From an uncultured Candidatus Saccharibacteria bacterium (GTDB taxonomy: Bacteria; Patescibacteriota; Doudnabacteria; UBA920), in contig CAZEKH010000001.1 in NCBI GenBank assembly GCA_964512925.1, positions 136,226 to 200,225 on the forward strand: a DNA stretch of 64,000 bases, given 5' to 3'. The position numbers and the translations under genes are program-made. Under the pieces are notes generated by a model. That model had not been told where the DNA came from and did no database searches. It saw only the letters and a program-made list of their open reading frames with translations. This document shows, piece after piece, positions 43,678-62,014 of the stretch (within the stretch, counting starts at the first letter, position 1; the number at the start of each line of letters is the position of its first letter).

Positions 43678-46584
43678 ATGGCTGATATCATTTCTATCCG
43701 CGGGGCGCGGATGCATAACTTAAAAAATATTGATGTAGATTTGCCTAGAAACAAGCTGGTGGTTTTAACCGGCCTGTCAGGCAGCGGCAAGTCGTCTTTG
43801 GCTTTTGACACCATCTATGCCGAAGGGCAGAGAAGGTATGTGGAAAGTTTGTCAGCTTATGCCAGACAGTTCATTGGTCTTATGGACAAGCCGGACGTGG
43901 ACAAAATAGAAGGTTTGTCCCCGGCAATTTCCATTGACCAAAAGTCCGCATCGCACAACCCTCGCTCTACTGTCGGAACCGTAACTGAAATTTATGACTA
44001 TATGAGGCTACTTTGGGCTCGTGTGGGAGTGCCTCATTGTCCGGTCTGCGGGAAAAAAATCCAAGGTCAAACTATCCAGGCAATGGCTGAGCAGCTTTTG
44101 GGTTTGGAAAAAGGCACAAGGCTGATGCTTTTGGCGCCTTTTATTAAAGATCAAAAAGGCGAACACCGGCATATATTTGAACAGATCAAAAAAGCCGGTT
44201 TTGCCCGCGTGCGTGTGGATGGCACAGTGATGGACTTAAACGAAGCCCAGGGTTTAAGCCTGGACAAGCAAAAAAAACATAATATAGAAGTGGTGGTGGA
44301 CCGCGTGGTGGTAGATCCGGCTGAACGGGGCAGACTCTCCGAGAGTCTGGAAAAGGCTGCGGATTTGGGCGATGGGATAGTTATAGCTTTGCGGGTTGCT
44401 GAAGAAACAAAACCTGACAGCAAGACGCGATCAACCTCTCCCCAGCCCTCCCCAAGTCTTGGGGAGGGAGGCTATAAGGAAATATTGCTCTCCCAAAAAT
44501 TCGCTTGTCCGGACGGACACATTCAGCTGTCTGAGCTGGACCCGAGGGATTTTTCTTTTAACAGCCCGCACGGAGCTTGTTCGGAGTGTAAGGGTTTGGG
44601 CACTAAGCTGACGGTGGAGCCGGATTTGGTTTTACCCAACCACCGGCTGACTTTGGCTGAAGGCGCTATCCGTCCCTGGAGCAAGACGACTTCCAGACAG
44701 TCCTGGTACTCGCGGATGCTGGAAGCCGTGGCCAAAGAATACGGTTTTTCCGTACACACTCCGGTGAAAGATTTGCCAAAAAAATATATTGATATTGTTT
44801 TGCACGGTTCAGGCGAGAAAAAAATCCGCATCTCCGGCGAGTTTAGGAGCGGCGACGGGGAGTTTGAGATGAACACGGTTTTTGAAGGCGTGGTGCCAAA
44901 CCTGGAGAGGCGGTACCGCGAGACTGACTCGGAATATATGCGCAGCGAAATAGAAAATTATATGCGCGTGCGCCAGTGTCAGGTTTGCCACGGCAAGCGC
45001 CTTAGGCTGGAAGTTTTGGCTGTGACCGTAGGCGGACAGGGGATAGTGGAGGTATCTGCTATGACTATAGACAAAGCCGCGGATTTTTTTGAAAAACTTT
45101 CCAAATCTTTGAGCGCCAAAGACAATCAGATTGCCAAACAAATTTTAAAGGAAATTTCCGCGCGTCTGTCTTTTTTGCTCAATGTTGGTTTGTCGTATTT
45201 GTCTTTGGACAGAACTGCGGATACTTTGTCCGGTGGGGAAGCCCAGCGCATCCGTTTGGCGACCCAGATCGGCAGCGGCCTGACCGGAGTTTTGTATATA
45301 TTGGACGAGCCATCTATCGGCCTGCATCAGCGCGACAACGGTAGACTCCTTAAAACATTGAAAGATTTAAGAGATTTGGGCAATACGGTGATAGTTGTAG
45401 AGCACGATGAGGAAACCATTCGCGAGGCGGATTGGGTGGTGGACATCGGACCAGGAGCCGGCAAGCACGGAGGCGAGCTGGTGGCGGAAGGTAAACCTTT
45501 GGATATTGAAAAAAATCCGAAAAGCATCACCGGGCAGTATTTGTCAGGAAAAGAATACATAGAAGTGCCGAAAAAAAGACGGCACGGCAACGGTAAAAAT
45601 ATTTCAGTTGTGGAAGCTTCTGAGTTTAACCTGAAAAATGTTACAGCCCAGATCCCGCTCGGCAAATTTGTCTGCGTAACCGGGGTGTCAGGTTCCGGCA
45701 AATCTACATTGATTTCTGACATTTTAGCCAGAGCGTTAAACAAACATTTTTGGGACAGCAAGGACGAACCAGGCAAGCATAAAAAGATCACGGGACTTGA
45801 ACACCTAGACAAAGTCATCAGCATTGACCAAAGCCCCATAGGCAGGACTCCGAGGTCAAACCCGGCTACTTACACCGGGCTGTTTACGCCGATCCGGGAG
45901 ATTTTTGCCGAAACCCGCGAAGCCAAGATGCGCGGCTATCAGGCTGGCAGGTTTAGTTTCAACGTCAAAGGCGGTCGTTGTGAGAAATGCGCCGGGGACG
46001 GGGTTTTGAAAGTCGAGATGAATTTTTTACCCGATGTCTATGTAACCTGCGAAGAGTGCAACGGCAAAAGGTATAACCGCCAGGCTTTGGAGATCCACTA
46101 TAAAGAAAAAACCATTTCCGATGTTTTGGAGATGACAGTTGACGAAGCAAAAACTTTTTTTGCAGCCGTGCCTGCCTTGCACAAAAAACTGGAAGTCTTG
46201 TCCCAGGTGGGCTTGGGCTATATGCGCCTGGGCCAGAACGCCACGACTTTGTCCGGCGGGGAAGCTCAGAGGATCAAACTTGCAACCGAACTGTCGCGCG
46301 CGTCTACCGGCCGCACTCTTTACCTTTTAGACGAGCCAACTACGGGCTTACATTTTGCGGACGTCAAACGTTTGATCCACGTTTTAAACAAACTGGTAGA
46401 CAAGGGCAACACTGTGGTGGTCATAGAACACAATCTGGATATGATCAAAACCGCGGATTGGCTTTTGGATATGGGTCCGGACGGGGGAGACAAGGGCGGA
46501 ACTATAGTTGCCGAAGGCACACCCGAAGATGTGGCAAAAGTCAAAGTTAGCTTTACCGGCCAATACCTAAAAAAGATTTTATAA
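43678..46584 (+). CDS. uvrA: excinuclease ABC subunit A
   Basis: Two ABC ATPase modules ([12 protein letters not shown]; [11 protein letters not shown]), zinc fingers and signature motifs. In-frame repeat insertion at 44430-44480 ([17 protein letters not shown]). Confidence 0.95.
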
Positions 46585-46605: not shown

Positions 46606-46633
46606 TATAATACCTTCATACACGACTGTATGA
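46606..46633. repeat. palindromic hairpin CTTCATACACGACTGTATGAAG; second copy at 47150-47178
   Basis: Identical hairpins flank the TrpR-like gene on both sides. Confidence 0.6.
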
Positions 46634-46657
46634 AGGTATTATTAATATACCAACAAA

Positions 46658-47149
46658 ATGACAAAGCTATCTAAAAGAAAATTAGACCCTGAGCATTTTG
46701 GGCACTATATAAATAATCTATGGTCAGCTTTTACTCTGCTAACCAGCAAGGAAGATATACGGCTTTTGTTTAAAGATATTTTTACCCATACGGAATATAA
46801 AATGTTTGCAAAACGATTGGAGATTGCTCGCCGTCTTTTAATGCAGGAGAGTTACGAGCAAATAGAAAAAGCATTAAATGTTACATCAAGGACTATTACC
46901 TCCGTAAATAATGTTCTTTCAGAAAAAGGGGATGGTTTTAGAAAAGTTCATGAAAAGTTTGAAAGAATTGAGGATGCTTATTGGAAGAAACAAAAAGAGA
47001 TCACGAAAAATTTGGAAAATCCTTTTCGGAAGAAAGCTCAAAGGAAAACTGTGGGCGGGGCGTTGCTCAAAGCCGGCGCCATAGCTTTAGACAAAGTAAT
47101 CGTCAAAAAGATAAAAGAAAAATCTGCAAAAAAATATTTAGATATATGA
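46658..47149 (+). CDS. TrpR-related YerC/YecD-family DNA-binding protein
   Basis: EYKMFAKRLEIARRLLMQESYEQIEKALNVTSRTITSV HTH region. Confidence 0.55.
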   Translation: MTKLSKRKLDPEHFGHYINNLWSAFTLLTSKEDIRLLFKDIFTHTEYKMFAKRLEIARRLLMQESYEQIEKALNVTSRTITSVNNVLSEKGDGFRKVHEKFERIEDAYWKKQKEITKNLENPFRKKAQRKTVGGALLKAGAIALDKVIVKKIKEKSAKKYLDI

Positions 47150-47475
47150 CACACCTTCATACACGACTGTATGAAGGTGTGGGTGGGGAAAGTGGGGGGT
47201 GGGTTGGTTTGTAGAATTGCCACAAAACTGACCAAATAAAGTTTGGATTTTAAATAATCCGCCTTAAATAAGGCGGATTATTTTTGCTATGGGGCTTGAT
47301 TTTTTTGAGGGTTTGTGTTAAAGTAACAAAGCTTTGAATGAGGAATCGACTAAACCTAAGGGTAAGGCCGATTTTTTGTTTGTTTGTCGCGGTGCAGGAG
47401 ATCTCGCACTACGGCAAAAAGCTGCGCCCGTCTCAAAAAGGCGGGTTAAGATTTCAGTTCACCAAGGAGAGGGAA

Positions 47476-48102
47476 ATGTCAGATTTTCGCAAGTTGTTTC
47501 TCGCGGCTTTCGCCGCGATTCTGATGTTCTGGGCGCCGCAGACTGCGTCGGCAGGTTTCGTGGACAATTTCGAATTGAACCCGAACGCTGGGGACGTGGG
47601 CGGTCTAGATGGTTCGAATACGATCTGGGTCGTCACGCCCACCCTGGACGTTGCGGGACCCATGTATGGAGGTCTCTCGTGCCACAGCGGCACGAGTTGT
47701 ATCGACATGGACGGCACTGGCCAGATGGCCGGCTCCCTCAAGACCATGTTCGCTACTATGGTTGGGGCGACTTACACCGCCAATTTCTGGATCGGGGGAA
47801 GTCAGCGCAACTTCCTTGGACCGGATGCGGTGACGGTGAATTTCGGGACCGCGATCCCACTGGTGGTCACGACGCCGCAAGGCGACACCAGCTGGACAAT
47901 GTACACAATGTCTTTCGTCGGTGATGGGAACAACCACTGGTTGGAATTTGTCGGTCAGGGAGCCGACAACGTCGGAGTGTTGCTGGACGACGTGGAACTG
48001 GCCGATAACTCGGTTCCGGAGCCCGCGACGTTCGCGTTGATCGGCGGAGGTCTGGTGCTTCTCGGCCTCAAACGCCGAGGTCGCAAGAACGCCAACAACT
48101 AG
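47476..48102 (+). CDS. secreted protein with C-terminal PEP-CTERM sorting signal; high GC (~60%)
   Basis: Start at Met preceded by GGAGAGGG SD (the ORF track's extension to 47338 is unlikely). Signal peptide. C-terminus VPEPATFALIGGGLVLLGLKRRGRK. Confidence 0.55.
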   Translation: MSDFRKLFLAAFAAILMFWAPQTASAGFVDNFELNPNAGDVGGLDGSNTIWVVTPTLDVAGPMYGGLSCHSGTSCIDMDGTGQMAGSLKTMFATMVGATYTANFWIGGSQRNFLGPDAVTVNFGTAIPLVVTTPQGDTSWTMYTMSFVGDGNNHWLEFVGQGADNVGVLLDDVELADNSVPEPATFALIGGGLVLLGLKRRGRKNANN

Positions 48103-48289: not shown

Positions 48290-49215
48290 TTTGTATAATT
48301 TTTTACATACTAATTAACTCCCCCAAGGCCCCCCGTCCGAACGCCCACGGCGGGCAGGCCTCTTTAAAAAAGAGGGGGGAATGAAGCGGGTAGGTTTGAA
48401 AAAGAGTGGAAAAAATATTACAGTCGTTGCAACCTCACCCCACCCCCTCTCCGATAGCGGAGAGGGGGAAGCGGATGCAAGATTCCAGCCGGAGTTTACC
48501 CCGATGAACATCGGGGCGGGAATGATACCTTTTCTATTTTTGTCATCCCCACATAACCGGGGATCTTGGTTTTTACCCTCTCCAATATGGGAGAGGGTGT
48601 CCCGATGAACATCGGGACGGGTGAGGTTTGAGCGATGGTGATAAAATATAAGTTGGTTTAATTTTCTAACATTGTTACCTCACCCCATCCCCCCGCCCGA
48701 ACGCCACAGGCGGGCAGGTCTCCCAAATGGGAGAGGGGGTAAAGAACGCATCATTCTCACCTAGTGGGAATGATATAGAAACGCGGAATGACGGAATATT
48801 TTTCCTATTTTCCCCAAGTTTCCCACATAGCTTTGCACAGGGGTTTTCCACTTTTGGGGGATAATTTTTGCTGTTTGTTGGGCTTTGACCAGAGGCAGGC
48901 TTTTGTGCCAAGATATAAAGACCACTTTTTACCCCCGTTAGAAGCAATCCGCCGTCAGGTGGATACCGAGCCTTTTTGTGCCCGGGCTTCTAACGGGGTG
49001 ATCTGGTTTGTGGGGACATTAACTCCCCCTGACCCCCTCTTTGAAAAAGAGGGGGAAATGAAAGGGGGTAGATTTGAAAAAGAGGGGAGAGGCTTAAAAT
49101 ATTACAATCATCGTAACCTCACCCCCCTACTTCGTTAAAACTTCGTAGGGCAAGCCAGCCCCCCGCCCGAACGCCCAAGCCGGGCAGGTCTCCGATAGCG
49201 GAGAGGGGAACTAAT
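48290..49215. repeat. ~0.9-kb non-coding repeat cluster
   Basis: Contains CCCTCTCC-loop-GGAGAGGG hairpins, CCGATGAACATCGG hairpins, CCCGAACGCC..GGCGGGCAGGTCTCC modules, a TGTCATCCCC..GGGGATC element and a 75-bp GGTGAGG..CCTCACC MITE-like unit. Confidence 0.7.
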
Positions 49216-50451
49216 TTGATATCTATGAATGAGCTGAAAATAAAAATTGAACAAGAGATTGTTAAAGCTTCCGGGATTTCTATCATCGGGCTTTTAAACG
49301 ACCTGGTGGAATACGCGGAAAGCCTCCGCGCTTCGGACATCCATATTGACCCGTACGAAAAAGATGTGCTGGTTCGTTTTCGCGTGGACGGGGTCTTGCA
49401 GGAGATATTCCGCTTGCCGAAAAATATCCATAGCGAAACAATCAGCCGCATCAAGATTTTGTGCGGCCTGAGGACTGACGAACATCAGGCGGCGCAGGAC
49501 GGACGCTTTCGGATGTTTTTTGATGTTGAAAAGAAAAAATTCATTGACGTCCGCGTGTCCGTGGTCCCAACTTACTTTGGCGAAAACGCGGTGATGCGTC
49601 TTTTGACTGACAAGGCCGAAGGTTTGTCTTTGGACGACTTGTATTTTTCCAAAGAAAACCAGAAAAAAATCCTTAAAGCCGCGCATAAGCCTTATGGGAT
49701 GATCTTAACTACCGGCCCTACGGGTTCGGGCAAAACCACCACGCTTTACGCGCTTATCAAGCTTTTACAGGGGCCAGAAATTTCTATCGTAACTATAGAA
49801 GACCCGATTGAGTACGCGATGCTGGGCATAGAGCAGATCCAGGTCAACTCCAGAACCAACTTAACTTTTGCCCAGGGACTTCGCGCCATCCTCAGGCAGG
49901 ACCCAAACATCATAATGGTTGGCGAAATCCGCGACTCAGAAACTGCCGGGATAGCGGTTAATACGGCGCTTACTGGACATTTGCTTTTGTCCACTCTTCA
50001 TACCAATGACCCGGCTACCACTCTGCCCAGGCTTTTGGATATGGGAATAGAGAGCTATCTGGTTGCCTCCACTGTTAACTTGGTTATCGGTCAGAGATTG
50101 GTTAGAAAAATTTGCGAGAGCTGCAGAGTAGTAAAAAAATTCACCCCTGCTGAAACCAAAAGTTTGTCCGAACATATCCCTTTAAAAATCTTAAAAAAAT
50201 TTAAACACTTCTATCAAGGTACCGGCTGCGATGAATGTAACAACACCGGGTATAAAGGCAGGGTGGCGCTGCACGAGGTGTTGGAAGTTGATGATCATAT
50301 CCGCGAGTTGATTTTGAAAAAAGCTTCCGCAACGGAGATCCGCCATCAGGCTTTTGAAAAAGGCACGGTGGCTATGGGAATGGATGGTCTTTTAAAAGCC
50401 GGGCAAGGCCTGACCACGGTGGAAGAGATACTCAGGATAAGCCATGAGTAG
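49216..50451 (+). CDS. pilB: type IV pilus assembly ATPase, GspE/PilB family (short form)
   Basis: Walker A GPTGSGKTTT, Asp and His boxes, C-terminal tetracysteine CESC...CDEC. Confidence 0.8.
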   Translation: MISMNELKIKIEQEIVKASGISIIGLLNDLVEYAESLRASDIHIDPYEKDVLVRFRVDGVLQEIFRLPKNIHSETISRIKILCGLRTDEHQAAQDGRFRMFFDVEKKKFIDVRVSVVPTYFGENAVMRLLTDKAEGLSLDDLYFSKENQKKILKAAHKPYGMILTTGPTGSGKTTTLYALIKLLQGPEISIVTIEDPIEYAMLGIEQIQVNSRTNLTFAQGLRAILRQDPNIIMVGEIRDSETAGIAVNTALTGHLLLSTLHTNDPATTLPRLLDMGIESYLVASTVNLVIGQRLVRKICESCRVVKKFTPAETKSLSEHIPLKILKKFKHFYQGTGCDECNNTGYKGRVALHEVLEVDDHIRELILKKASATEIRHQAFEKGTVAMGMDGLLKAGQGLTTVEEILRISHE

Positions 50452-50517
50452 AATTATTCTAATTAACCTAATTTCTAATTATTCTAAAATATTATTTTAT
50501 CCCCATAAGCAAAATTT

Positions 50518-50895
50518 TAATTTGCTGTCATCCCGGCCTTGAGCCGGGATCCAGGGTTATATGCAAAACGAATGTTATGTATACATCCTTGCAAACAAAA
50601 GAAACGGAACACTGTATGTGGGAGTGACCAATGACTTAATAAGAAGAGTTTATGAACATAAAAATGATTTAACAGAAGGCTTTACTAAAAAGTACCAGAT
50701 ACACACTTTAGTCTATTTTGAAAATACAGGAAATATAGAAAGCGCAATAAAAAGAGAAAAACAGTTAAAAAGATGGCAAAGACAATGGAAAATATCCCTT
50801 ATTGAAAAACAAAATCCGCAGTGGAATGAGTTATACTCTAACTTGACTTAACCCTGGATCCCGGATATCCGCCTAAGGCGGATTCCGGGATGACA
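50518..50895 (+). mobile_element. GIY-YIG gene bounded by inverted hairpin repeats
   Basis: Left TGTCATCCCGGCCTTGAGCCGGGATCCAGGGTT (50521-50553). Right AACCCTGGATCCCGGATATCCGCCTAAGGCGGATTCCGGGATGACA (50840-50887). Both are members of the same element family, in opposite orientation. Confidence 0.4.
50561..50851 (+). CDS. small stand-alone GIY-YIG nuclease (UPF0213-like) inserted between pilB and pilC
   Basis: CYVYILANKRNGTLYVGVTNDLIRRVYEHKN. Confidence 0.7.
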   Translation: MQNECYVYILANKRNGTLYVGVTNDLIRRVYEHKNDLTEGFTKKYQIHTLVYFENTGNIESAIKREKQLKRWQRQWKISLIEKQNPQWNELYSNLT

Positions 50896-51023
50896 AAATC
50901 TATTTAGCTAAAGCCCTATATTTGATTGGAGTTTATAACCACTTATTTAGAATAATTAGGTTAATTACCTACCCGAATGCCAAGTAAAGCGTGGTAGGCG
51001 GGGAAATTAGAATAATTTAACCC

Positions 51024-52142
51024 ATGTTTAATTTAAAAATTCAAAAAAACACACCTGAACTAGTTACTTCTCCGTCGTTTTTTACCCGCCTTGTTGAAGG
51101 TTCCATCTCCCGCTCGGAGCAGGTGCAGTTTGCAAAGAGGCTGGCTTTTTTGATGCGCGCGGGAGTGCCGATTTTAGAGAGCCTGCAGATTTTGGCCGGG
51201 CAGTCTAAGACTAAAGGCGGCAAAAAAATGTTAGAGAATTTGGTGTCAGAAGTTTCCAACGGGCATTTTTTGTCTACCGCAATGGCTAAGTTTTCTTCCG
51301 TGTTTGGTGACTTTGCGGTCAACATTGTCAAAGTCGGGGAACAGGCTGGCATCTTGCCTGAGAATTTAAACTATTTGGCGGAGGAGCTGAAAAAAAAGCA
51401 GGCGCTGAGAAAAAAAGTGATGGGCGCTTTGTTTTACCCGATATTTATAGTGGTGGCCACGCTTTTGTTGGTGGGACTTTTAACTGTCGTGGTGTTTCCT
51501 AAAGTTTTACCCATCTTTACCAGTATCAATGTGCCTTTGCCTGTTAGCACAAAAATTCTAATGTCAGTCAGCCGGTTTCTCATAGCTTATGGATTTTGGG
51601 TGTTGATTTTGATATTGATTTTTCCCTTCGCTCTTTTGTTTTTATCCCGCTTGCCTAAAGTCAAAGCCTGGCTGGATAAAGTTTTGCTGAAAATTCCGTT
51701 AGCCGGTAGCATTGCCCAGAACTATTATTTGGCTAACTTTTGCCGGACTATGGGACTGCTACTCAAAGGCGAGTCGCGCCTTGACGAAGCTTTGCAGACT
51801 TCCGCGCGTACCACGCAAAATATGGTTTACAGAAAGCAGCTGGAAAACCTGGCGCAGACTGTAGCGAAAGGCAGTAGGATGTCCGAGTATATGCTGAAAA
51901 ACAAAAAATATTTTCCGGATATGGTGTCTCATATGTTGGCCGTGGGGGAAACCGCGGGCAACCTAAGCGAGAGTTTTATGTATCTGGCGGATATGTACGA
52001 AACCGAGGTAGATGACCAGACAAAAAATTTATCTACTCTCATTGAGCCGGTTTTGATGGTGTTTATGGGCCTGTTGGTCGGTTTTGTTGCGATTTCCATC
52101 ATCACCCCAATTTATTCGGTTACCCAGAAATTACATCCATAA
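51024..52142 (+). CDS. pilC: type IV pilus inner-membrane platform protein PilC (GspF family)
   Basis: Two T2SSF repeats and three TM segments. Confidence 0.85.
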   Translation: MFNLKIQKNTPELVTSPSFFTRLVEGSISRSEQVQFAKRLAFLMRAGVPILESLQILAGQSKTKGGKKMLENLVSEVSNGHFLSTAMAKFSSVFGDFAVNIVKVGEQAGILPENLNYLAEELKKKQALRKKVMGALFYPIFIVVATLLLVGLLTVVVFPKVLPIFTSINVPLPVSTKILMSVSRFLIAYGFWVLILILIFPFALLFLSRLPKVKAWLDKVLLKIPLAGSIAQNYYLANFCRTMGLLLKGESRLDEALQTSARTTQNMVYRKQLENLAQTVAKGSRMSEYMLKNKKYFPDMVSHMLAVGETAGNLSESFMYLADMYETEVDDQTKNLSTLIEPVLMVFMGLLVGFVAISIITPIYSVTQKLHP

Positions 52143-52265
52143 TGCCCCTCTCCGAGCACGGAGACCTGCCCGCCGTGGGCGTTCGGGCGGGGGGTTAGGG
52201 TGAGGTAACAGTGTTTGAATATTAAATAAGCTTAAATTTTATTACCATCGCTTAAACCTCACCCC
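52142..52265. repeat. composite repeat including a 75-bp MITE-like element (GGTGAGGTAACAG...TTAAACCTCACC)
   Basis: Near-identical copy at 52870-52990. Related copies at 48610-48683 and 58930-59005. Confidence 0.7.
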
Positions 52266-52311
52266 AGCCCTCTCCCATATAGGAGAGGGAGTAAAAACAT
52301 TTCTGACAATT

Positions 52312-52797
52312 ATGATCAATTCTGCGCAATCTAAAAACGGGTTTACCCAACACCATTTTTTTTTAGAAAAAAATAGTGCTGGGTTTACCCTCATAGAAGT
52401 TTTGGTTTCAATGGGTATACTGGCAATGCTGGGGACTTTGGGACTGGTGTTTGGGTTGGATTTTTATCGGGCGTATGCTTTTAACTCGGAAAGGGATTTG
52501 GCGGTGGGGATTTTACAAAAAGCGCGCAGTCGCAGTTTGGCTAACATTAACCAAACAACTCACGGAGTTTGTATTATAGGTTCTAAATATATTTTGTTTG
52601 AGGGTGCTTTAAATTGCGATCCGAACAATTCAGCCAATGAAGTTTATGATGCAAACCCAGGCGTTTCAAATTCGGGACTACAAATTGTTTTTCAGCAGCT
52701 TTCCGGTAGGCCGAATTCTGTTGGTTCTGTAACATTAACTTCGGGCGTGAGATCTTCGGTTATTAACATTAACGCTGAGGGGATGGTGGAGTGGTAA
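52312..52797 (+). CDS. pseudopilin / minor pilin (prepilin-type N-terminal cleavage/methylation domain)
   Basis: KNSAGFTLIEVLVSMGILAMLG class III signal. Confidence 0.7.
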   Translation: MINSAQSKNGFTQHHFFLEKNSAGFTLIEVLVSMGILAMLGTLGLVFGLDFYRAYAFNSERDLAVGILQKARSRSLANINQTTHGVCIIGSKYILFEGALNCDPNNSANEVYDANPGVSNSGLQIVFQQLSGRPNSVGSVTLTSGVRSSVININAEGMVEW

Positions 52798-53056
52798 AAT
52801 AATTTAAGATTAAAGATTAAAGATTGAAGATTTAAACAATACGTTTTTATTTTATATGTATGAGTTTTTTCAAATCCCCCTCTCCACTCTCGGAGAGGGT
52901 TAGGGTGAGGTAACAGTGTTTGAATATTAAATAAGCTTAAGTTTTATTACCATCGCTTAAACCTCACCCCTTCCCTCTCCCATATGGGAGAGGGAGTGAA
53001 AAATCAAAAAAAATAGGGTTGAGATAATGTAAAAAAAATGCTAAACTAAGGCGCAA

Positions 53057-54526
53057 ATGAAAATATCAGGAAAAAAAATAAATACCCAGGCAGGCGGCAG
53101 CACGGTTGAGCTAATGGTGGCTTTGTTCGTGTTTGTCGTGTGTTTAGCCGGCATCATTGCCGTGGTTTTTGGCAACCAGTTTTTGTCCGTGGATACGGAG
53201 ATGAACGGAACTGCCATAGCCAAAGCCCAGGAGCTTTTGGATGAAAAGCGTAACGACGCAAGAACGAACTTTAACGGCGTGGTAGCCGGGGTTTCTACTG
53301 ACGGACAATTTACTAAGACAGTGGCAGTCAACAATCTTAACCAATGCCAAAAGGAAGTAACAAGTGAAGTTTCCTGGAACGACGGCACACGCTTACAAAA
53401 AGTTTCTTTAACTACTTTGATCAGCAACACTGACGAGCTCGTGGCGGTCAGCGGAGTTTGCTCAAACCAAAATGGTTTTTCTGGCCTTACTTGCCCCAGT
53501 ACATCGTCTTATTCGGATTGGAATTTTACTTTGCCTGGCGGCGGGACAGTTAAGTCTATGTTTGTGACTAGTAGAATTGTAAGTCTGGCGGTAGACCCTT
53601 CCGGCACGGCAATAACAGATTTTGACTATCTTAGGTTTACAGTTTCTTCTGGTTTAGTATTTAACAATGGAACATTTACAAGAACTCCTTCCGGCGTACG
53701 CACTTCGTCCGGCGGTTTAAACGGCGTAACATATGACAACTCAAAAACTTATGCGTATGGCGCTGGCAAGTGGAGTGGCGCAGGACAAGTGCAGATCATC
53801 AATGCCGACGCAACAAGACCAGGGGGAATGTATGCCATAGCCTTTGTCCTCGATAGTAACACTCAGGACGCTTTAAGCATATTTTTTAGGGACAATAAAA
53901 TTTACATAGGGACAAAAAATAACCCCTCAGGTCCTGAGCTTTATATCATCGACGTTACGAGCCCGGAGTCAGCTCAGATTTTAGCTACCAAAGAGATTGG
54001 CGCGGATGTAAAAAAGATTGTTGTTAGGGGGAGTTTGGCTTACTTAGCAACTTCGGACCCAAGCGCGGAAGCGCGGGTTTATGATATTGGGCAAGTCAAA
54101 AGTATTGCTTTGCCAGGCGTGATCAATTTTGTTGGAAATTTCAATGCCAGTTTGCTTTCCGGTGCCAACAGTTTGGCGGTTTTGGGCGCTACTGTGTTTT
54201 TGGGCGGCAGTGGCGCAAATAATTTTTATGAAATAAATACTTTAAACGCTTCTTCAATGTCTGAGATTACGCATCAACCGATAGGCGGGAGCATAAACGA
54301 CCTTTCCGCCAGCGGCAACCTGGCATATCTCGCCACTGACGGCGCCAATGTTTCAGGCAAGGAGCTTGAACTGTTAAATTACGCGGATATAAGTAGTCCT
54401 CAAACCTGTGCCATTGGTTCGGAAGACTTGCCAGCCTCGGCTTCGGCCGTGGTGTTAGATGGGGGATGGGTGTATGTGGGAATGAATGCTTCAAACAAAC
54501 CGTTGAGGATATATAAGTTTCAGTAG
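53057..54526 (+). CDS. pilin-like protein fused to an LVIVD-repeat beta-propeller domain (candidate pilus-tip adhesin)
   Basis: N-terminus AGGSTVELMVALFVFVV (G-x4-E prepilin-like). C-terminal half has repeated LYIIDVTSPES / ARVYDIGQV / LAYLATxD motifs resembling LVIVD repeats. Confidence 0.55.
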   Translation: MKISGKKINTQAGGSTVELMVALFVFVVCLAGIIAVVFGNQFLSVDTEMNGTAIAKAQELLDEKRNDARTNFNGVVAGVSTDGQFTKTVAVNNLNQCQKEVTSEVSWNDGTRLQKVSLTTLISNTDELVAVSGVCSNQNGFSGLTCPSTSSYSDWNFTLPGGGTVKSMFVTSRIVSLAVDPSGTAITDFDYLRFTVSSGLVFNNGTFTRTPSGVRTSSGGLNGVTYDNSKTYAYGAGKWSGAGQVQIINADATRPGGMYAIAFVLDSNTQDALSIFFRDNKIYIGTKNNPSGPELYIIDVTSPESAQILATKEIGADVKKIVVRGSLAYLATSDPSAEARVYDIGQVKSIALPGVINFVGNFNASLLSGANSLAVLGATVFLGGSGANNFYEINTLNASSMSEITHQPIGGSINDLSASGNLAYLATDGANVSGKELELLNYADISSPQTCAIGSEDLPASASAVVLDGGWVYVGMNASNKPLRIYKFQ

Positions 54527-54585
54527 ATTACATTTTAGATTCCCTCTCCAAGTGTTGGAGAGGGCTAGGGAGAGGTTGAATTATA

Positions 54586-55083
54586 ATGAGTTATAAATTA
54601 CAAAACCAAAATTTAACTCCCCCTAACCCCTCTTTGAAAAAGAGGGGTGAAGAAGCTGGGTTTACCCTGCTCGAGACTTTGCTTTATATCGCCCTCCTGT
54701 CTTTTTTTCTCGCGAGTTTGGTGGGTATCACTTATCAGTCTTTGGATTCAGCCGGGCAGATTGGCCGAAAAATTGCCATTCAGCAGGAAGCTAACTTTAT
54801 ACTTAGAAAAATGGACTGGGCTATAACCGGTGCTTCGGACATCACCGGAACTGCGGATCATTTAACAATCACAAGGACTGTTTCGCCTACTTCAGTTGAA
54901 TTTATCTCAGATACTCTAAACAAAGGTATGGACATCAAAGCCGAGCTTGGCCAGATGAAGTTAAACAGCAGTAACGTCAAAGTGGAAAATGTAAATTTTG
55001 TCATATCCGGCAGTCCGAAAAAAGTCGTAGCCAGTTTTGATATTAACGGAGAAAATTTTAGTTTGACTAGGTATTTGAGGTAA
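54586..55083 (+). CDS. pseudopilin / minor pilin
   Basis: EAGFTLLETLLYIALLSFFLASL. Confidence 0.7.
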   Translation: MSYKLQNQNLTPPNPSLKKRGEEAGFTLLETLLYIALLSFFLASLVGITYQSLDSAGQIGRKIAIQQEANFILRKMDWAITGASDITGTADHLTITRTVSPTSVEFISDTLNKGMDIKAELGQMKLNSSNVKVENVNFVISGSPKKVVASFDINGENFSLTRYLR

Positions 55084-55096
55084 CCGTTAGAGACTT

Positions 55097-55795
55097 ATGG
55101 AATATACTTATATTTTAAAAAGTAAAAAAGACGGTAAAATGTATACAGGTCTGACCAGTGATCTACGGAAGCGTTTTAAGGAGCATAATGAAGGTTTGGT
55201 TCCTTCTACAAAGAATAGAGGGCCATTTAAGATAATTTATTATGAAGCTTGTGTAAATAGACAAGATGCCGCAAGTAGAGAGATTTTTTTAAAAACTGGT
55301 ATGGGAAAGAGATATATAAAAAATCGTTTAAAACGCTTCCTGTCTCTAACGGCTCAAAGAGATAGTGCTAGCACCGTTATAAACAGCTTGCCAAAGTCAA
55401 GCGAAGTTTTTAACGGTGGATATATCGCTTTAACTTCCGTCATCATCGTTTCTTTATTGCTCCTGACTGTCATCACCGCTTTAAGCTCTGTTAACTATTT
55501 TTCCCGTTACAACATATTGGAAAACGAATATAAGGACAGAAGTTTTGCTTTGGCTGAAGGCTGTGTGGATTATGCTATAGGAAGACTGGCGGGAAATAGT
55601 AATTACATCGGTAATGAAACAGTAAACATCGGAGTCGGAACTTGTCAGGTGGCGTCAGTTTCTTCCGGGGCTTTTCCTAAAACTATCAGCACTGTCGGAA
55701 TTTTTCCACCCACGGCTGCAAAAAAAAGTTATACCAAACTTCAGGCAGTTGTAAGTTCAAGTTTCGCCATCAGTTCTTTTATAGAAAATCCATAA
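55097..55795 (+). CDS. GIY-YIG nuclease domain fused in frame to a pilin-like hydrophobic C-terminal half (possible insertion-generated fusion)
   Basis: First ~90 aa are GIY-YIG (YTYILKSKKDGKMYTGLTSDLRKRFKEHN). The remainder has GGYIALTSVIIVSLLLLTVITAL and an internal TTG that could start a separate minor-pilin ORF. Confidence 0.5.
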   Translation: MEYTYILKSKKDGKMYTGLTSDLRKRFKEHNEGLVPSTKNRGPFKIIYYEACVNRQDAASREIFLKTGMGKRYIKNRLKRFLSLTAQRDSASTVINSLPKSSEVFNGGYIALTSVIIVSLLLLTVITALSSVNYFSRYNILENEYKDRSFALAEGCVDYAIGRLAGNSNYIGNETVNIGVGTCQVASVSSGAFPKTISTVGIFPPTAAKKSYTKLQAVVSSSFAISSFIENP

Positions 55796-56112
55796 ATATG
55801 CTTGTCATTCCCTTGGCAAAGGGAATCTTGTACCCTCTCCCTCTCCGAGAGACGGGGATCTGCCCGCCTTGGGCGTTCGGGTGGGGGTAGGGGTGAGGTT
55901 ACGGATTTGATAAAATTAAAGATATTTAAATATGTAATATTAACCCCTGGATCCCGGATATCCCGCGAAGCGGGATTCCGGGATGACAGCAAAAATTTTT
56001 TGGAAAGATTGAATTTTGAACATTGAATCAAGATATTTCTAAAAAACCAACCGCCTTTACAAAAGGCGGATATAAAATTATAATTAAGCCATAAATATTA
56101 AATCATTAAAAT

Positions 56113-56625
56113 ATGAAAAAGTTTCTTAAAAAATCCCAAGGATTTACATTGATTGAAATCCTGGTAGTCATCGGTATCATCGCGGTGTTGGCAACCATTG
56201 TCATCATCGCCATTAACCCCGCCCGCCAGTTTGCCCAGTCAAGGAACACTCAGAGGACGGCCAATGTCCAGGCAATTTTAAATGCGGTAGGGCAGAGGAT
56301 TGCGGATAACAAAGGTGTGTTTGCCGGCACAGTAGGAGCCCAAACTTGTCCAAATTTAACCACCTCCGGAGCAAATGCCTTAACTGCTGGCACTGCTTAT
56401 AAAATAAAGGCTCCTGCAGTACTGGCAAGTAATGAGATTGATTTATCGTGTCTGGTTACAACTTATATTCCTTCTTTTCCTTATGATCCAAGCGATGCAG
56501 CTGCAGCGTGGACAAGCACAGCCGCTTATAATACCGGGTATACAATAGCAATTGATGCGAGCGGAAGAGCTACGGTAGCCGCGCCTACTGCTGAATTAGG
56601 AACGACTATTTCAATCACCCGCTAA
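56113..56625 (+). CDS. pilA: type IV major pilin
   Basis: MKKFLKKSQG|FTLIEILVVIGIIAVLATIVI canonical prepilin leader and N-terminal helix. Confidence 0.8.
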   Translation: MKKFLKKSQGFTLIEILVVIGIIAVLATIVIIAINPARQFAQSRNTQRTANVQAILNAVGQRIADNKGVFAGTVGAQTCPNLTTSGANALTAGTAYKIKAPAVLASNEIDLSCLVTTYIPSFPYDPSDAAAAWTSTAAYNTGYTIAIDASGRATVAAPTAELGTTISITR

Positions 56626-56638
56626 AATTTTATTTTAT

Positions 56639-56676
56639 ATCCAGCCTCGATGTTTACGGGGCTGGATTTTTTGTTT
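56639..56676 (+). terminator. Rho-independent terminator of pilA
   Basis: ATCCAGCCTCG-atgtttac-GGGGCTGGAT followed by TTTTTTG. Confidence 0.8.
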
Positions 56677-56702: not shown

Positions 56703-56996
56703 TTGATAAACTTTATTATGCAAAAAACTTTACCTGCATTTTTAAAACCTGTTGTTTGGTGGGCTAAGTTTGATGATTTGGATATTGAAAAAGACAAGGG
56801 AACTATTATTGCGCACATATTAAATACCGGAGATACAAAGGCCACAGACTGGATGAAATCTGTATATAAAGAACAAGATATTAAACAGGTTTTACTTGAA
56901 AAAAGACCAGGTTTTTGGGATAAAAAATCTTTAAATTTTTGGTCATTGGTTTATGGAGTAATGCCGAATTTTAATCAGATGCGCCAGATAAAATAA
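56703..56996 (+). CDS. hypothetical protein, candidate antitoxin partner of the downstream AbiEii-like gene
   Basis: 97-aa ORF ending 2 nt before the next start. Assignment by position only. Confidence 0.35.
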   Translation: MINFIMQKTLPAFLKPVVWWAKFDDLDIEKDKGTIIAHILNTGDTKATDWMKSVYKEQDIKQVLLEKRPGFWDKKSLNFWSLVYGVMPNFNQMRQIK

Positions 56997-56998
56997 CT

Positions 56999-57619
56999 AT
57001 GCATTTAGAAATTTTAGACAAAGAAAAACAAGATTTGTTGCCCCATCTAGTGCTATTTTCTCAGCAATTTTATTTAGCTGGTGGTACGGCTTTAGCTTTA
57101 CAACTTGGCCACAGGAAAAGTGAGGATTTTGATTTTTTTTCACAAACTGAATTTAACGAAAACGAATGGAATATCAAAACTGAAAAAGAATTTTTAAATT
57201 TTGGTTTAAAAAAAGTTACTGCCACTTGGCAGACTTTGGGGTATCATATTGGCGGGCATACCAGTTTAAGTTTGATGTGCTATCCGTACCATTTGCTTGA
57301 GCCGTTCGTAGAAATAAAAGGTTTAAAACTCGCTTCGCTTTTAGACATTGGTTGTATGAAATTGTCAGCCATTGTGTCGCGTTCTACCAGTAGGGATTAT
57401 GTTGACCTGTATATGCTTTTAAATGGGCATTTTGAGTTAGGTTTTTTGCTTGAAAAATGTAAAAAAAAGTTTCCAACTTTGGATACTAACCTCATCATAA
57501 AATCTTTGACTTATTTTGAAGATATGGAAGATAAAAATTTGGATATACTGGATCCTAAAATACCCGATATGAAAAAAATTCAGGAATTTTTTGTGAAAGA
57601 AGTAAAAAAGCTTGTATAA
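56999..57619 (+). CDS. nucleotidyltransferase, AbiEii/AbiGii toxin family (DUF1814)
   Basis: FYLAGGTALALQLGHRKSEDFDFF N-terminal motif typical of AbiEii. Confidence 0.6.
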   Translation: MHLEILDKEKQDLLPHLVLFSQQFYLAGGTALALQLGHRKSEDFDFFSQTEFNENEWNIKTEKEFLNFGLKKVTATWQTLGYHIGGHTSLSLMCYPYHLLEPFVEIKGLKLASLLDIGCMKLSAIVSRSTSRDYVDLYMLLNGHFELGFLLEKCKKKFPTLDTNLIIKSLTYFEDMEDKNLDILDPKIPDMKKIQEFFVKEVKKLV

Positions 57620-58779: not shown

Positions 58780-59100
58780 CCCTTGAGGGGGAGGGTTAGG
58801 GAGAGGTGATGCAGTGAATTTTTTTTCATCCTCGCGACTTGTCCTTCAGCAGTTTGAACGAAGGAGGAATGTGGGGATCTTGGTTTTTTGCCCTCTCCGA
58901 TATCGGAGAGGGTGTCCCGATGAACATCGGGACGGGTGAGATTTGAGCAATGGTGATAAAACATAAGTTTATTTAATTTTCTAACATTGTTACCTCACCC
59001 CTGACCCTCTCCGAAAGCGGAGAGGGGGAAGAGGATGCAAGATTCCCGCTGGAGTTTATCCCGATAAACATCGGGGCGGGAATGACAGCATTAAATGAAA
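58780..59100. repeat. second copy of the ~230-bp composite repeat unit (circularly permuted relative to 48437-48683)
   Basis: 58872-59005 matches 48553-48683. 59005-59095 matches 48437-48527, both at high identity. Confidence 0.75.
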
Positions 59101-59576: not shown

Positions 59577-59676
59577 GAAATTAGAAGAAAGTTTTTAAAT
59601 ATTAAAGTTTGTTACCTCACCCCAACCCTCTCCGAAAACGGAGAGGGGGTTTGGCCAGAAAATTAACAGAAACAAA

Positions 59677-60963
59677 ATGAAGAAAATATTATTGGGTTTT
59701 TTAAGTAGCGTGTTGGTTTTGGGACTTTTGCCGGTTTCGGTTTTAGCCATTGCGCCGGGCAAGGTTGTAGTTATAAAAAAAGTTATAAACGACAACGGTG
59801 GAAGCAAAGTTTCTGGTGATTTTACTATTGATCTCTATGTGAAAGACATCACCAGGCCGGCTAGCGAGCCTATGGTTTTGTGGTCAGAGTTTCCAGGACC
59901 CGTGTCGCCTGGCACAACTTTTAGCATAGGCGCTACTTCCTATAAAGTCACCGAGACCCCAGCGTCCGGTTATACAGCTTACTATTCTTCAGACTGCGAA
60001 GGCTCAGTTTCAAACGGAGAGGTTAAAACTTGTACTGTAACAAACAACGACCAGCCACCGAAAGTTACGGTTATAAAAAATGTAGTCGGTGGAAGCAAAA
60101 CTGCCGGGGATTTTGTAATGCAAGTTTATGGGCGCGATGTGACTCGGCCGGCGGATGAGCCCAATGTGCTTTTGGCGGAATTTCCAGGATCAGGCGGCGA
60201 GGGGACTACTGTAAATATCAATGCCGGAAGCTATGAAGTTAAAGAAATTGTGGATTTAGCTTATACCACCACTTTTTCCGAAGGTTGCAGCGGGACAGCC
60301 TCCGTTGGTCAGAACATCTCTTGTACAGTAACCAATACTTTTAAAAATTCTGAAGGTGGAAGTGGCGGAGGTTCGGGCGGCTCTGGCGGAAGCGGGGGAA
60401 CTGGAGGAGCTGGTGGAACTGGCGGCGGGGGTGGAGGTGGCGGTTTGCCAGTGACCTCTGGTTCAATATCCGGCAGCGTATATAACGATATCAATACAAA
60501 CCAAGTCAAAGACGGTACAGATACAGGACTTTCTGGCTTTACAGTTTTTCTGGATGCCAATGACAACGGACAGCTAGATTCCGGCGAGGCTACAGCTCTA
60601 AGCGGCGCAAACGGAGCCTATGTTTTTTCTGGAATACCTTTCGCAATTTATAATATTAGAGTAGTAGCTCAGCCAGGTTGGAGCATTGCTTTTCCAACCT
60701 TAGCATCTGGCAATAAATATACAGTCAATGTAAGCAGTATCCAACCCAATCATTTTGTTAAAGACTTTGCCTTAAACAACAAGGGTGTGATTTTAGGAGC
60801 GTCTACCGGCCCAGGTGGCAGTACAGCGCCCGGCGCTTCTGACCCTGCAATTTTAGGAGCAGTCACTGAACTGCCCAGAACAGGTTTGCCAGCCAGCCTG
60901 CCTGCATTGTTTGCAGGGCTTGGTATAGCGGGATTTTTACTGAAAAAGAAAAAATTTGTTTAA
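59677..60963 (+). CDS. LPXTG-anchored cell-surface protein
   Basis: Signal peptide. Gly-rich linker. C-terminal LPRTG + hydrophobic segment + KKKK tail. Confidence 0.7.
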   Translation: MKKILLGFLSSVLVLGLLPVSVLAIAPGKVVVIKKVINDNGGSKVSGDFTIDLYVKDITRPASEPMVLWSEFPGPVSPGTTFSIGATSYKVTETPASGYTAYYSSDCEGSVSNGEVKTCTVTNNDQPPKVTVIKNVVGGSKTAGDFVMQVYGRDVTRPADEPNVLLAEFPGSGGEGTTVNINAGSYEVKEIVDLAYTTTFSEGCSGTASVGQNISCTVTNTFKNSEGGSGGGSGGSGGSGGTGGAGGTGGGGGGGGLPVTSGSISGSVYNDINTNQVKDGTDTGLSGFTVFLDANDNGQLDSGEATALSGANGAYVFSGIPFAIYNIRVVAQPGWSIAFPTLASGNKYTVNVSSIQPNHFVKDFALNNKGVILGASTGPGGSTAPGASDPAILGAVTELPRTGLPASLPALFAGLGIAGFLLKKKKFV

Positions 60964-61002: not shown

Positions 61003-61617
61003 ATGAAATATATAAAAAAAATTATACTTTGGGTTTTGTTTTTGTTGGTCTTATGTACGGTGTCAGTGGTGCTGTTGAATTTTCGGTATTTTGTTTTGCA
61101 GTATCAGCTTTTGGTGTCCGGCAAGCCGCCAGAGATAGAGGCGCCGCAAATTTCTAAAAATTCTCAAACGTTGGAAAAAAATGAAAAGCCAAATTATCTT
61201 TGGATTCCATCTTTGGGCATTGAAGCTCCCATAGTATATGTGGATGGAATAACTGACCAAATTTTTCAAGAAGCTTTAGGAAAAGGTGTAGTGCATTTTC
61301 CTCAAACCGCCAAGCCAGGGGAATATGGCAACTGTTACATATTTGGCCATAGCAGCGACTATGCCTGGAGCAAAGGTTCGTACAAAACAGTATTTGCTTT
61401 GCTAACCAAGATTCAGCCAGGGGCGGAAATATTGGTTTCAGATAGTATTGGCAAAGTTTATTTCTATAAAGTTTTGGAAGCAAAAGTGGTAAGTAAAAAG
61501 GATGTGGGCCTGCTGTCCCAGGAAAAATATACAAAAAAACTTTTAACTTTACAAACTTCTTATCCGATAGGCACAGCTTTAAAGCGCTATATTGTTCGCG
61601 CGGAGTTGTCTGAGTAA
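61003..61617 (+). CDS. sortase-fold protein with Ser in place of the catalytic Cys (TLQTS instead of TLxTC)
   Basis: N-terminal TM anchor. Conserved His in NCYIFGHSS. LLTLQTSYP...RYIVRAE matches sortase TLxTC...R spacing, but the codon is TCT (Ser). Confidence 0.55.
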   Translation: MKYIKKIILWVLFLLVLCTVSVVLLNFRYFVLQYQLLVSGKPPEIEAPQISKNSQTLEKNEKPNYLWIPSLGIEAPIVYVDGITDQIFQEALGKGVVHFPQTAKPGEYGNCYIFGHSSDYAWSKGSYKTVFALLTKIQPGAEILVSDSIGKVYFYKVLEAKVVSKKDVGLLSQEKYTKKLLTLQTSYPIGTALKRYIVRAELSE

Positions 61618-61702: not shown

Positions 61703-62014
61703 ATGAAAAATAAAGCAACATTTGCAGCTTTACTAGCTGCTATCGTATTTGGCGCCGTGTTCCCAACTCTGTCTTTGGCGCAAAATTTCGATGTTTTAAA
61801 TGAACAACGGGAAGAGGCAAGGACTTTGGAACAAGCCAGGCCAAGCGGTTTGCAGTTTGAACAGGCTTTGCCTGACGCAGATCCTTCAGTTATGGCGGTT
61901 GGCGAGGTTAAGGGGGCTTCTACCAAGCTGCCCAGAACCGGAGCTCCGCTTCTGGCACTTGCGATTTCTGCCTTAGCCGGGACTTTCGCGTTCCTCAAAA
62001 GAAAGAAAATTTAA
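61703..62014 (+). CDS. small LPXTG-anchored secreted protein
   Basis: Signal peptide. C-terminal LPRTGAPLLALAISALAGTFAFLKRKK. Confidence 0.6.
   Translation: MKNKATFAALLAAIVFGAVFPTLSLAQNFDVLNEQREEARTLEQARPSGLQFEQALPDADPSVMAVGEVKGASTKLPRTGAPLLALAISALAGTFAFLKRKKI

Follow-up and report, generated by a model that had tools for sequence, protein, structure and literature searches.

What is the role of a beta-propeller that is built into a pilin? The question is raised by a type IV pilus (T4P) locus in contig CAZEKH010000001.1 (assembly GCA_964512925.1, positions 136,226 to 200,225) of an uncultured bacterium labelled Candidatus Saccharibacteria; this whole stretch of 64,000 nt is called the window below. 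On its plus strand, positions 49216-56625 encode PilB, PilC, four minor pilins and PilA, according to the list of open reading frames (ORFs) and their Pfam and NCBIfam matches, and one of the minor pilins, a protein of 489 amino acids (aa), is predicted to continue into a propeller of the LVIVD type. We consider it likely, with a probability of about 0.65, that this is a self-contained structural T4P operon of a Saccharibacteria-like bacterium belonging to the candidate phyla radiation (CPR), in which the propeller of the I subunit forms a ligand-binding head at the pilus tip for attachment to a host or a surface. The original prediction had described the locus as a pilus without a secretin and with two pilin-LVIVD fusions, and all of the ORFs that it named are in place on the plus strand.

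The 489-aa protein is best modelled as a pilin module, a disordered linker and a seven-bladed propeller. Its N-terminus reads MKISGKKINTQAG↓GSTVELMVALFVFVV (the arrow marks the predicted cleavage site here and below; MKISGKKINTQAG13↓GSTVE18LMVALFVFVVCLAGIIAVVF), which gives a short basic leader ending in Gly(-1), a Glu at +5 and about 20 hydrophobic residues. The alignment of 42 homologs has just five invariant columns, and this Gly and this Glu are among them; 105 of the 120 full-length family members have the G-x4-E pattern followed by a hydrophobic stretch. In the full-length AlphaFold2 model, which was built from a shallow alignment and has a mean pLDDT (predicted local distance difference test) of 72, a helix of 55 residues (16-70) is packed on a four-stranded antiparallel sheet (78-123) in the lollipop fold of pilins. 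A low-confidence linker (about 126-153) follows, and then the blades (154-487), in which 28 strands make up seven groups of four; the pLDDT is mostly 78-93 over the C-terminal two thirds. In a Foldseek search against the PDB the propeller matched WD40/DDB1 propellers (down to 1.8e-11), which confirms the fold only.

The profile searches that had been proposed as a check gave a divided result. N_methyl (PF07963 / TIGR02532) matched neither the 489-aa protein nor its paralog at the end of the window, and LVIVD (PF08309) reached only 10.9 bits (E=0.3) in the 489-aa copy, under the gathering threshold of 20.2 bits. The paralog passed this threshold both as the partial copy in the window (27.3 bits) and at its full length of 470 aa (P0007; 30.3 bits, 2.5e-7). 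Among the 42 relatives, LVIVD was matched by 41 (best 1.4e-29) and N_methyl by only 4, both at E<=0.001. Its own Pfam tests fail, and the call of the 489-aa protein as an LVIVD pilin rests on evidence from the family and from structure. This evidence bears out the claim of two pilin-propeller fusions, and the prepilin-like G-x4-E start was found in both copies (G13/E18 and G10/E15).

The failure of N_methyl on the 489-aa protein and on 38 of 42 relatives, as well as residues +1 to +3 (G/x-S-T) that are unlike the canonical F-T-L, might suggest that the protein is not a pilin at all, and that it is a surface propeller held in the membrane by an uncleaved signal anchor, which simply lies in a pilus operon. 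We find this scarcely credible, because Gly-1 and Glu+5 are invariant, the globular part behind the helix has the GspI fold, the gene is fixed between two pilin genes in many lineages, and some members of the family have the canonical G↓FTTIE or G↓FSTLE.

In the apparent arrangement of the four minor pilins the canonical order is kept, with H (GspH/FimU-like), I (GspI/PilV-like), J and K, and it is I that carries the propeller. Among these assignments only that of I has support from the fold, as the modelled pilin module of the 489-aa protein has a GspI-like globular part. The family models (TIGR01707 gspI, TIGR02523 pilV) aligned over the whole length of the module, and the scores were 15.9 bits for PilV against a cutoff of 52.2 and 15.2 for XpsI against 150. 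The gene lies between an H-type and a J-type pilin gene, after which comes a K-type gene without Glu+5, and this position is kept in the related loci L004, L006-L009, L014 and L016. The 161-aa H-type pilin and PilA score above the Pfam cutoff for N_methyl and the 165-aa pilin just under it. The orthologs of the H-type pilin are 55-67% identical, and those of the J-position pilin 42-57% (29% in the distant L006); the J label was taken from gene order, and the NCBIfam GspJ and ComGF matches are faint. The K-position pilin is without Glu+5 in six of six aligned orthologs (GG↓YIALT), as is expected of subunits of the GspK/PilX type. PilA has a promoter-like site of its own and a strong terminator-like hairpin, as would be expected for the major subunit. 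Some relatives have a giant modular pilin in the K position as well, of 837 aa with Ig-like repeats in L006 (3140-5722) and of 845 aa with a vWA domain in L014 (8691-11228), which indicates that the I and K tip subunits can both bear binding modules in one operon.

Several points weigh against our interpretation. The 489-aa copy itself fails both Pfam models. The GspI assignment came from a model of only six sequences, with NCBIfam scores far under their cutoffs, and Foldseek returned no significant match. H is suggested by one sub-threshold GspH match, and J and K by position, faint matches and the missing Glu+5, none of which amounts to significant homology; searches of the PDB with profiles of the I, J and K pilin modules also gave nothing significant. 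In the 64 kb no prepilin peptidase, PilM/N/O or PilT was found that would complete the pilus machine. Finally, an LVIVD propeller could have a role other than adhesion, and the function as an adhesin is putative for the whole family.

The operon recurs in several CPR lineages. A search with a three-sequence alignment yielded three loci (L007-L009), all outside the genome of the window itself, from metagenome-assembled genomes labelled Candidatus Saccharibacteria, in which PilB, PilC, an H-like pilin, the LVIVD pilin, a 165-aa pilin, a PilX-like pilin and PilA are followed by an LPXTG protein, a sortase and an LVIVD paralog; in L009 the paralog is followed by HrcA and GrpE, which are housekeeping genes, and the metagenomic contig L004 keeps a part of the same order. 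Whole or partial, the order PilB-PilC-H-I(LVIVD)-J-K-PilA was found in L004, L006-L009, L012-L014 and L016. L013 consists of T2SSE, T2SSF, a 164-aa protein and LVIVD, and L012 of LVIVD with two small proteins and a pilin that matches N_methyl; the whole core is retained in L014 and L016, and L016 belongs to Ca. Terrybacteria (GCA_001822865.1). One member of the family is from Ca. Brennerbacteria. The loci nearest to the window carry Saccharibacteria labels, and the window's two sortases and its two LPRTG proteins speak for wall-anchoring and an envelope of the monoderm type, in agreement with the monoderm or CPR lineage that had been proposed.

The family itself is very large. An exhaustive HMMER search with the 489-aa family gave 35,652 cluster representatives at E<=1e-3, and 4766 were left at the stricter E<=1e-30. 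Among the best 150 matches, 120 were proteins of 430-620 aa (about 500 aa), those listed being single stretches that span nearly the whole profile, and the remaining top matches were giant multi-propeller proteins. One of these, the 1998-aa P0006, has a canonical pilin N-terminus (NKG↓FLLVELLVAMGIF) and then many LVIVD propellers and appears as an extreme modular pilin. An earlier idea that the family is small, which came from a word-indexed homolog search that gave five and then four relatives, was overturned by the exhaustive search.

With regard to the rest of the pilus machine, profile searches over the window ORFs of at least 110 aa found no match to PilM, PilN, PilO, secretin, PilT or prepilin peptidase models, and PilM/N/O/Q/T/D were not seen in the flanks of L007, L009, L014 and L016 either. 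The absence of PilQ, PilM, PilN and PilO from the window thus stands as originally described. In the cultivated Nanosynbacter lyticus TM7x, the pilins are apart from pilB2/pilC2, which adjoin pilMNO, and pilM/N/O, pilD and pilT are in other loci (PMC12206443). Because TM7x has these genes elsewhere, the absence of PilM/N/O, PilD and PilT from 64 kb says little about the genome as a whole. Outside the pilus and surface genes the window is filled with housekeeping genes (rpoC, tRNA synthetases, TsaD, EF-P, SSB, S6, RNase J, UvrC and UvrA). As a separate observation, a 787-aa protein at 24439-26802 has a faint match to T2SS-T3SS_pil_N ('pilus formation protein N-terminal region'), with no domain passing alone.

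It has been widely proposed that CPR pili import DNA together with ComEC (PMC12455944), and the PilB of the window matches ComGA (5.5e-74), so that the pilus might be of the competence type, with a propeller that binds DNA or a cell-wall component and has no part in host attachment. This seems quite improbable to us. PilB scores about twice as high on the GspE and PilB models (under their equivalog cutoffs) as on ComGA, the set of pilins appears to be of the H-I-J-K type and not ComGC-GG, no comEC or other DNA-uptake gene is present among the Pfam matches of the window ORFs, and the neighbours are sortase-anchored surface proteins.

In an attachment pilus of the kind that we prefer, the I subunit, extended by the flexible linker and the seven-bladed LVIVD propeller, would be processed by PilD. 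A complex of GspI, GspJ and GspK, which was crystallised as PDB 3ci0, has been proposed to stand at the tip of type II pseudopili (PMC8179133). By analogy with this I-J-K complex the propeller would be placed at the distal end of the pilus and would bind a ligand for attachment to host cells or surfaces, taking the role that a separate PilY1 has in type IVa pili. GspI (EpsI, XcpV) differs in that nothing is attached to its globular domain of about 80 residues, and it is only 10-14% identical to the 489-aa module. The Pseudomonas fimU-pilVWXY1E operon has the same order of minor-pilin genes, and in type IVa pili the equivalent minor pilins both prime filament assembly and form the cap. The likeness to PilY1/PilC and FimU-PilVWX is that a beta-propeller adhesin is, or here would be, presented at the tip through a complex of core minor pilins (PMC8179133). 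However, PilY1 is not a pilin and has a propeller of IPR008707, whereas the 489-aa protein has a pilin N-terminus and no Pfam match to this PilY1/Neisseria_PilC domain, and here the propeller would be covalently part of the I subunit.

The architecture has been catalogued before. Modular type IV minor pilins, which present binding modules, were defined by Raynaud et al. 2021, with Streptococcus sanguinis PilB (vWA) and PilC (lectin) as examples, and Dataset S1 of that study contains about 30 proteins with N_methyl and 1-13 LVIVD repeats (IPR012902 + IPR013211), including an 860-aa protein of Ca. Falkowbacteria (PMC8179133); IPR013211 is LVIVD (PMC10210494). The 489-aa protein resembles the modular pilins of S. 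sanguinis in that a small pilin module and a short linker precede a bulky binding module shown by the filament. In the catalogue, the LVIVD entries were only counted, as a motif of unknown function, and the type of pilin and its position in the operon were not considered. The present family is far larger than the catalogue shows, because it mostly escapes the N_methyl model (4 of 42).

A closer parallel in function is PilX2 of the T4P-2 of TM7x, a minor pilin whose propeller has seven blades and whose signal peptide is non-canonical. It was proposed as the T4P-2 adhesin, and when pilX2 was deleted, host binding fell to about half (4.6%, compared to 10.6%; Grossman et al. 2025, PMC12206443). 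We retrieved a TM7x-like contig (L011) with the knockout primers of that study, and its five pilins appear in the same H-I-J-K-major order. PilX2 is therefore like the 489-aa protein in being a Saccharibacteria minor pilin with a seven-bladed propeller in a cluster of five pilins of apparently the same order. However, PilX2 is the fourth pilin (K), with DG↓YSLVL and no Glu+5, and its propeller is of the RCC1 type (Pfam 1.1e-48) without LVIVD, whereas here an LVIVD propeller is carried by a GspI-like pilin with Glu+5. Orthology between the two was rejected (BLASTP against L011 PilX2, E=1.1; RCC1 only in PilX2, LVIVD only here), and the propeller pilins of the window are thus analogs of PilX2, not homologs. 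Since the pilin-LVIVD architecture is already catalogued, though uncharacterised, and a propeller-pilin analog has been genetically tested, the original prediction overstated the novelty that it implied.

It is also conceivable that the propeller pilin has mainly a structural role, as a bulky primer or stopper which starts assembly and blocks full retraction through the wall without binding a specific ligand. Roles in priming and against retraction are ascribed to PilY1 with the minor pilins, the propeller pilin belongs to the core minor-pilin set and is kept in every related operon, and no PilT is nearby; priming was also raised as an option for PilX1 and PilX2 by Grossman et al. (PMC12206443). 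As the whole account we regard this as unlikely. The propeller is only 38-40% identical between genomes whose PilB is 75-77% identical (the PilB identity of the window to L007-L009), a paralog has arisen by duplication, and relatives have gained extra domains (Big_3_5 in L016) or many propellers (P0006), which is more typical of binding modules than of a plug. This rapid divergence, duplication and addition of domains and propellers fit a determinant of specificity. The structural and the binding role are compatible with each other.

The second, divergent copy of the propeller pilin fits into the attachment pilus as well. It lies beside a cluster of LPXTG-type surface proteins and sortases, and could serve as an alternative tip whose specificity differs. 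The succession of LPXTG protein, sortase and paralog recurs in L007-L009, where the orthologs of the paralog (32-33% identity) come after the sortase. Between pilA and this cluster the window has an AbiEii toxin-type gene (56703-57619), with a DUF6922 gene (so annotated in L003) upstream, and no homolog of the two was found at the corresponding position in L007-L009. Proteins with a C-terminal sorting signal of the PEP-CTERM type (VPEPATFAL...) adjoin the pilus and sortase genes in the window (47338-48102) and in L009 (13244-13900); they occur here in an apparently monoderm CPR bacterium, and no exosortase was seen in the window. The features of the locus are collected in Table 1.

Table 1. 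Positions of the pilus genes, their parts and the neighbouring elements (window coordinates unless a locus is named).
Feature	Position	Strand	Evidence and remarks
PilB-type assembly ATPase, short form, 411 aa	49216-50451	+	Pfam T2SSE 9.8e-119
Stand-alone GIY-YIG gene between pilB and pilC (ORF 50561-50851, 96 aa)	50544-50864	+	Pfam GIY-YIG 9.1e-15
PilC platform protein, 372 aa	51024-52142	+	Pfam T2SSF 8.7e-52, two domains
H-type minor pilin, 161 aa	52312-52797	+	G24↓FTLIE; N_methyl 2.5e-7; GspH 0.0019 (under cutoff)
Pilin-LVIVD protein, 489 aa	53057-54526	+	family-level and structural evidence
Predicted class III leader peptide, M1-G13	53057-53095	+	G13 and E18 invariant in 42 homologs
GspI/PilV-like pilin module (predicted), residues 14-125	53096-53431	+	long alpha1 helix and four-stranded sheet
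Seven-bladed LVIVD-type beta-propeller (predicted), residues 154-487	53516-54517	+	AlphaFold2, Foldseek, LVIVD in relatives
J-position minor pilin, 165 aa	54586-55083	+	G25↓FTLLE; N_methyl 7.5e-4, 19.4 bits, under cutoff
GIY-YIG element in K-pilin leader, UPF0213-type ORF from 55097 without own stop	55084-55352	+	Pfam GIY-YIG 2.6e-15
Terminal inverted repeats of the element, 11 nt, CCGTTAGAGAC / GTCTCTAACGG	55084-55094 and 55342-55352	+	perfect
'Pilin-like' ORF, 232 aa	55097-55795	+	GIY-YIG in N-terminal 86 residues, pilin after it in the same frame
ORF-less hairpin, related arms CACCGTTATAAAC / GTTTTTAACGGTG	55372-55418	+	predicted fold -19.5 kcal/mol; ends at K-pilin cleavage-site Gly codons
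K-position (PilX/GspK-like) minor pilin, mature part	55421-55795	+	GG↓YIALT, no Glu+5; orthologs 54-61% identical
Promoter-like site of pilA	56056-56084	+	best match of region, 11/12
Major pilin PilA, 170 aa	56113-56625	+	G10↓FTLIE; N_methyl 3.2e-8; orthologs 54-59% identical
Terminator-like hairpin of pilA, strong	56639-56667	+
LPRTG surface protein	59677-60963	+	SdrD_B (value in the cluster 9e-8)
Sortase	61003-61617	+	Pfam Sortase (values in the cluster 4.4e-23 and 1.6e-24)
Small LPRTG protein	61703-62014	+
Sortase	62080-62985	+	Pfam Sortase (values in the cluster 4.4e-23 and 1.6e-24)
Paralogous pilin-LVIVD protein, partial in window	62995-64000	+	G10↓HSTVE; LVIVD 2.2e-6
Copies of the GIY-YIG element besides window 55084-55418	L014:5975-6279, L016:8005-8335, L018:1033-1319, L019, L020
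GC-rich palindromic repeats	48300-49210, 52145-52300, 52875-53000, 54527-54650, 55850-55990, 58780-59030, 59594-59650

The genes listed in the original prediction are real, but two GIY-YIG ORFs were left out of the list: a stand-alone gene (50561-50851) and the first 86 residues of the 232-aa ORF that was called pilin-like (55097-55795). The orthologs of the K pilin align only to about residues 98-232 of this ORF. In the DNA alignment, about 310 nt are inserted in frame in the leader-coding region of the K pilin, where the ATG of the GIY-YIG part (55097) aligns with the native start of the relatives, and the GIY-YIG segment is absent from the orthologous sites of L004 and L007-L009. A homolog search with the 232-aa ORF returned 37 proteins whose GIY-YIG parts are 65-74% identical and whose C-terminal parts are unrelated pilins (T2SSG, T2SSJ, DUF1559, GspH-like and PilX-like). 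In at least ten of them ...KNRLKRFLSLTG is fused straight to FTLIE, which leaves no space for a separate leader. For these direct joins, and because the fusions recur in independent assemblies, an artefact of gene calling was rejected as their source. In the window copy the K pilin may instead start internally, for which a TTG at 55388 is the only candidate codon.

The DNA of the element is well defined. Elsewhere the same element is placed exactly at the G-F-T codons of the cleavage site (G↓FT), and its right end encodes ...SLTG, restoring Gly-1; this exact placement suggests that the nuclease is made as a removable leader. In four loci (L014, L018, L019 and L020) the former leader with its start codon survives directly upstream, whole or in remnants, and is followed by G-F-T or a decayed form of it. 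The clearest old leader is that of L018 (MRNKSGFT-PLET*), with duplicated G-F-T codons after the element, and these codons are duplicated on both sides of the element in L014, L018 and L019. Perfect terminal inverted repeats of 11-15 nt bound five of the six elements, and a further, nested helix of 13-14 nt forms within the coding sequence. Over the two nested helices of the six elements 93% of the cells pair, compared to 31-52% when the partners are slid, and compensatory double changes occur in nine helix pairs, a result reached by none of 500 shuffles; the sample is only these six sequences, the same ones from which the structure was read. Hairpins with the same arms and no ORF have their end precisely on the Gly codon in other pilin leaders (L014 6737-6783 and 8726-8756) and also occur between genes (window 48933-48999).

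We tentatively suggest that this is a selfish GIY-YIG element which targets the cleavage-site codons and is expressed as a prepilin leader that PilD removes. The element, of about 270 bp, would be mobile and would use the prepilin leader as a safe harbour, inserting at the codons GGN TTY ACC. Having no stop of its own and a right end that reads ...S-L-T-G, it would rebuild Gly(-1) ahead of F-T-L-I-E, and the nuclease would be translated as a pilin leader of 85-110 residues, which the host prepilin peptidase would cut off to leave a normal pilin. So interpreted, the element would be a counterpart of an intein that depends on a host protease. The ORF-less hairpins in other pilin leaders may be its non-autonomous derivatives, comparable to those of REP/RAYT systems. 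The sequences show the site specificity of the element, its in-frame junctions, the old leaders left upstream of it and the covariation of its helices, and from these it is inferred that the fusion is translated and cut by PilD, that the nuclease is active and that the element moves.

Other mobile systems share parts of this logic. Homing endonucleases of the GIY-YIG type, whether free-standing or encoded in introns, and inteins occupy a highly conserved target in a host gene without destroying it. REP/RAYT (REPIN) systems have a nuclease gene between inverted repeats that form hairpins, along with derivatives that are hairpins without an ORF. The GIY-YIG insert resembles the former in keeping its conserved target and the latter in its flanking hairpins and ORF-less derivatives. 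Unlike an intein it has no splicing domain, and its removal would depend on the prepilin peptidase of the host; unlike RAYT it has GIY-YIG and not a Y1 transposase. A homing endonuclease encoded in a group I intron was rejected: no Rfam match at E<=1 was found in 54900-55600, no intron RNA family is detectable, the element of about 270 nt is almost all ORF, and TIGR01453 scores 21.8 bits against 56. The nuclease is of the UPF0213 type, with 1zg2 and 1ywl as the nearest solved structures, and is small and unlike known transposases. The text searches that were made found no paper linking GIY-YIG to pilins. Of all parts of the locus, this nuclease in a leader is the likeliest to be new.

Similar genes and scars are found around the locus. 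The stand-alone 96-aa GIY-YIG gene is bracketed by a perfect 16-nt inverted repeat (50544-50559 / 50849-50864, 100% complementary), and it is missing between pilB and pilC in L007 and L008. In total, six GIY-YIG genes were counted over five distinct pilus operons (L015 and L017 merely duplicate L014 and L016). In four cases a pilin gene is the fusion partner, one gene stands upstream of pilA at a distance of 165 bp, and the sixth is the one between pilB and pilC. This stand-alone gene and a gene in L014 (11247-11553), which is enclosed by perfect inverted repeats of 21 nt, represent GIY-YIG subfamilies other than that of the leader element. The leader of the H pilin contains a perfect 10-bp direct repeat GGGTTTACCC (the G-F-T codons) at 52338-52347 and 52372-52381, which flanks 24 nt with a T-run/A-run palindrome, so that the leader reads MINSAQSKNG-FT-QHHFFLEKNSAG↓FTLIE. 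This duplication looks like a scar of insertion or excision at the same target site. The leader of the J pilin has a GC-rich hairpin repeat (54626-54646, CCCCTCTTT...AAAGAGGGG) which is related to a family of intergenic palindromes. Hairpin scars as a general trait of LVIVD-pilin leaders were considered and rejected, as only 1 of 120 has one. The GC-rich palindromic family, CCCTCTCC-N6-GGAGAGGG and ACCTCACCCC, fills most of the larger intergenic gaps of the locus, and one copy (44431-44483) lies in frame inside uvrA and is translated. Two identical 26-nt palindromes (ACCTTCATACACGACTGTATGAAGGT), at 46612-46637 and 47153-47178, flank a TrpR-like gene (46658-47149).

A central and still open question about CPR/Patescibacteria is by what means they recognise their hosts and stay attached to them. 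The family described here is a very large and almost unannotated set of propellers borne by pili, with an apparently defined position at the tip (subunit I), and its members are candidates for determinants of host specificity. The comparison with PilX2 of TM7x suggests that different tip subunits acquired propellers on at least two occasions. If our tentative interpretation of the GIY-YIG insert is true, a selfish nuclease gene would here have found a new way of living harmlessly inside an essential gene, and prepilin peptidases would tolerate leaders of about 100 residues, which could be useful for protein engineering.

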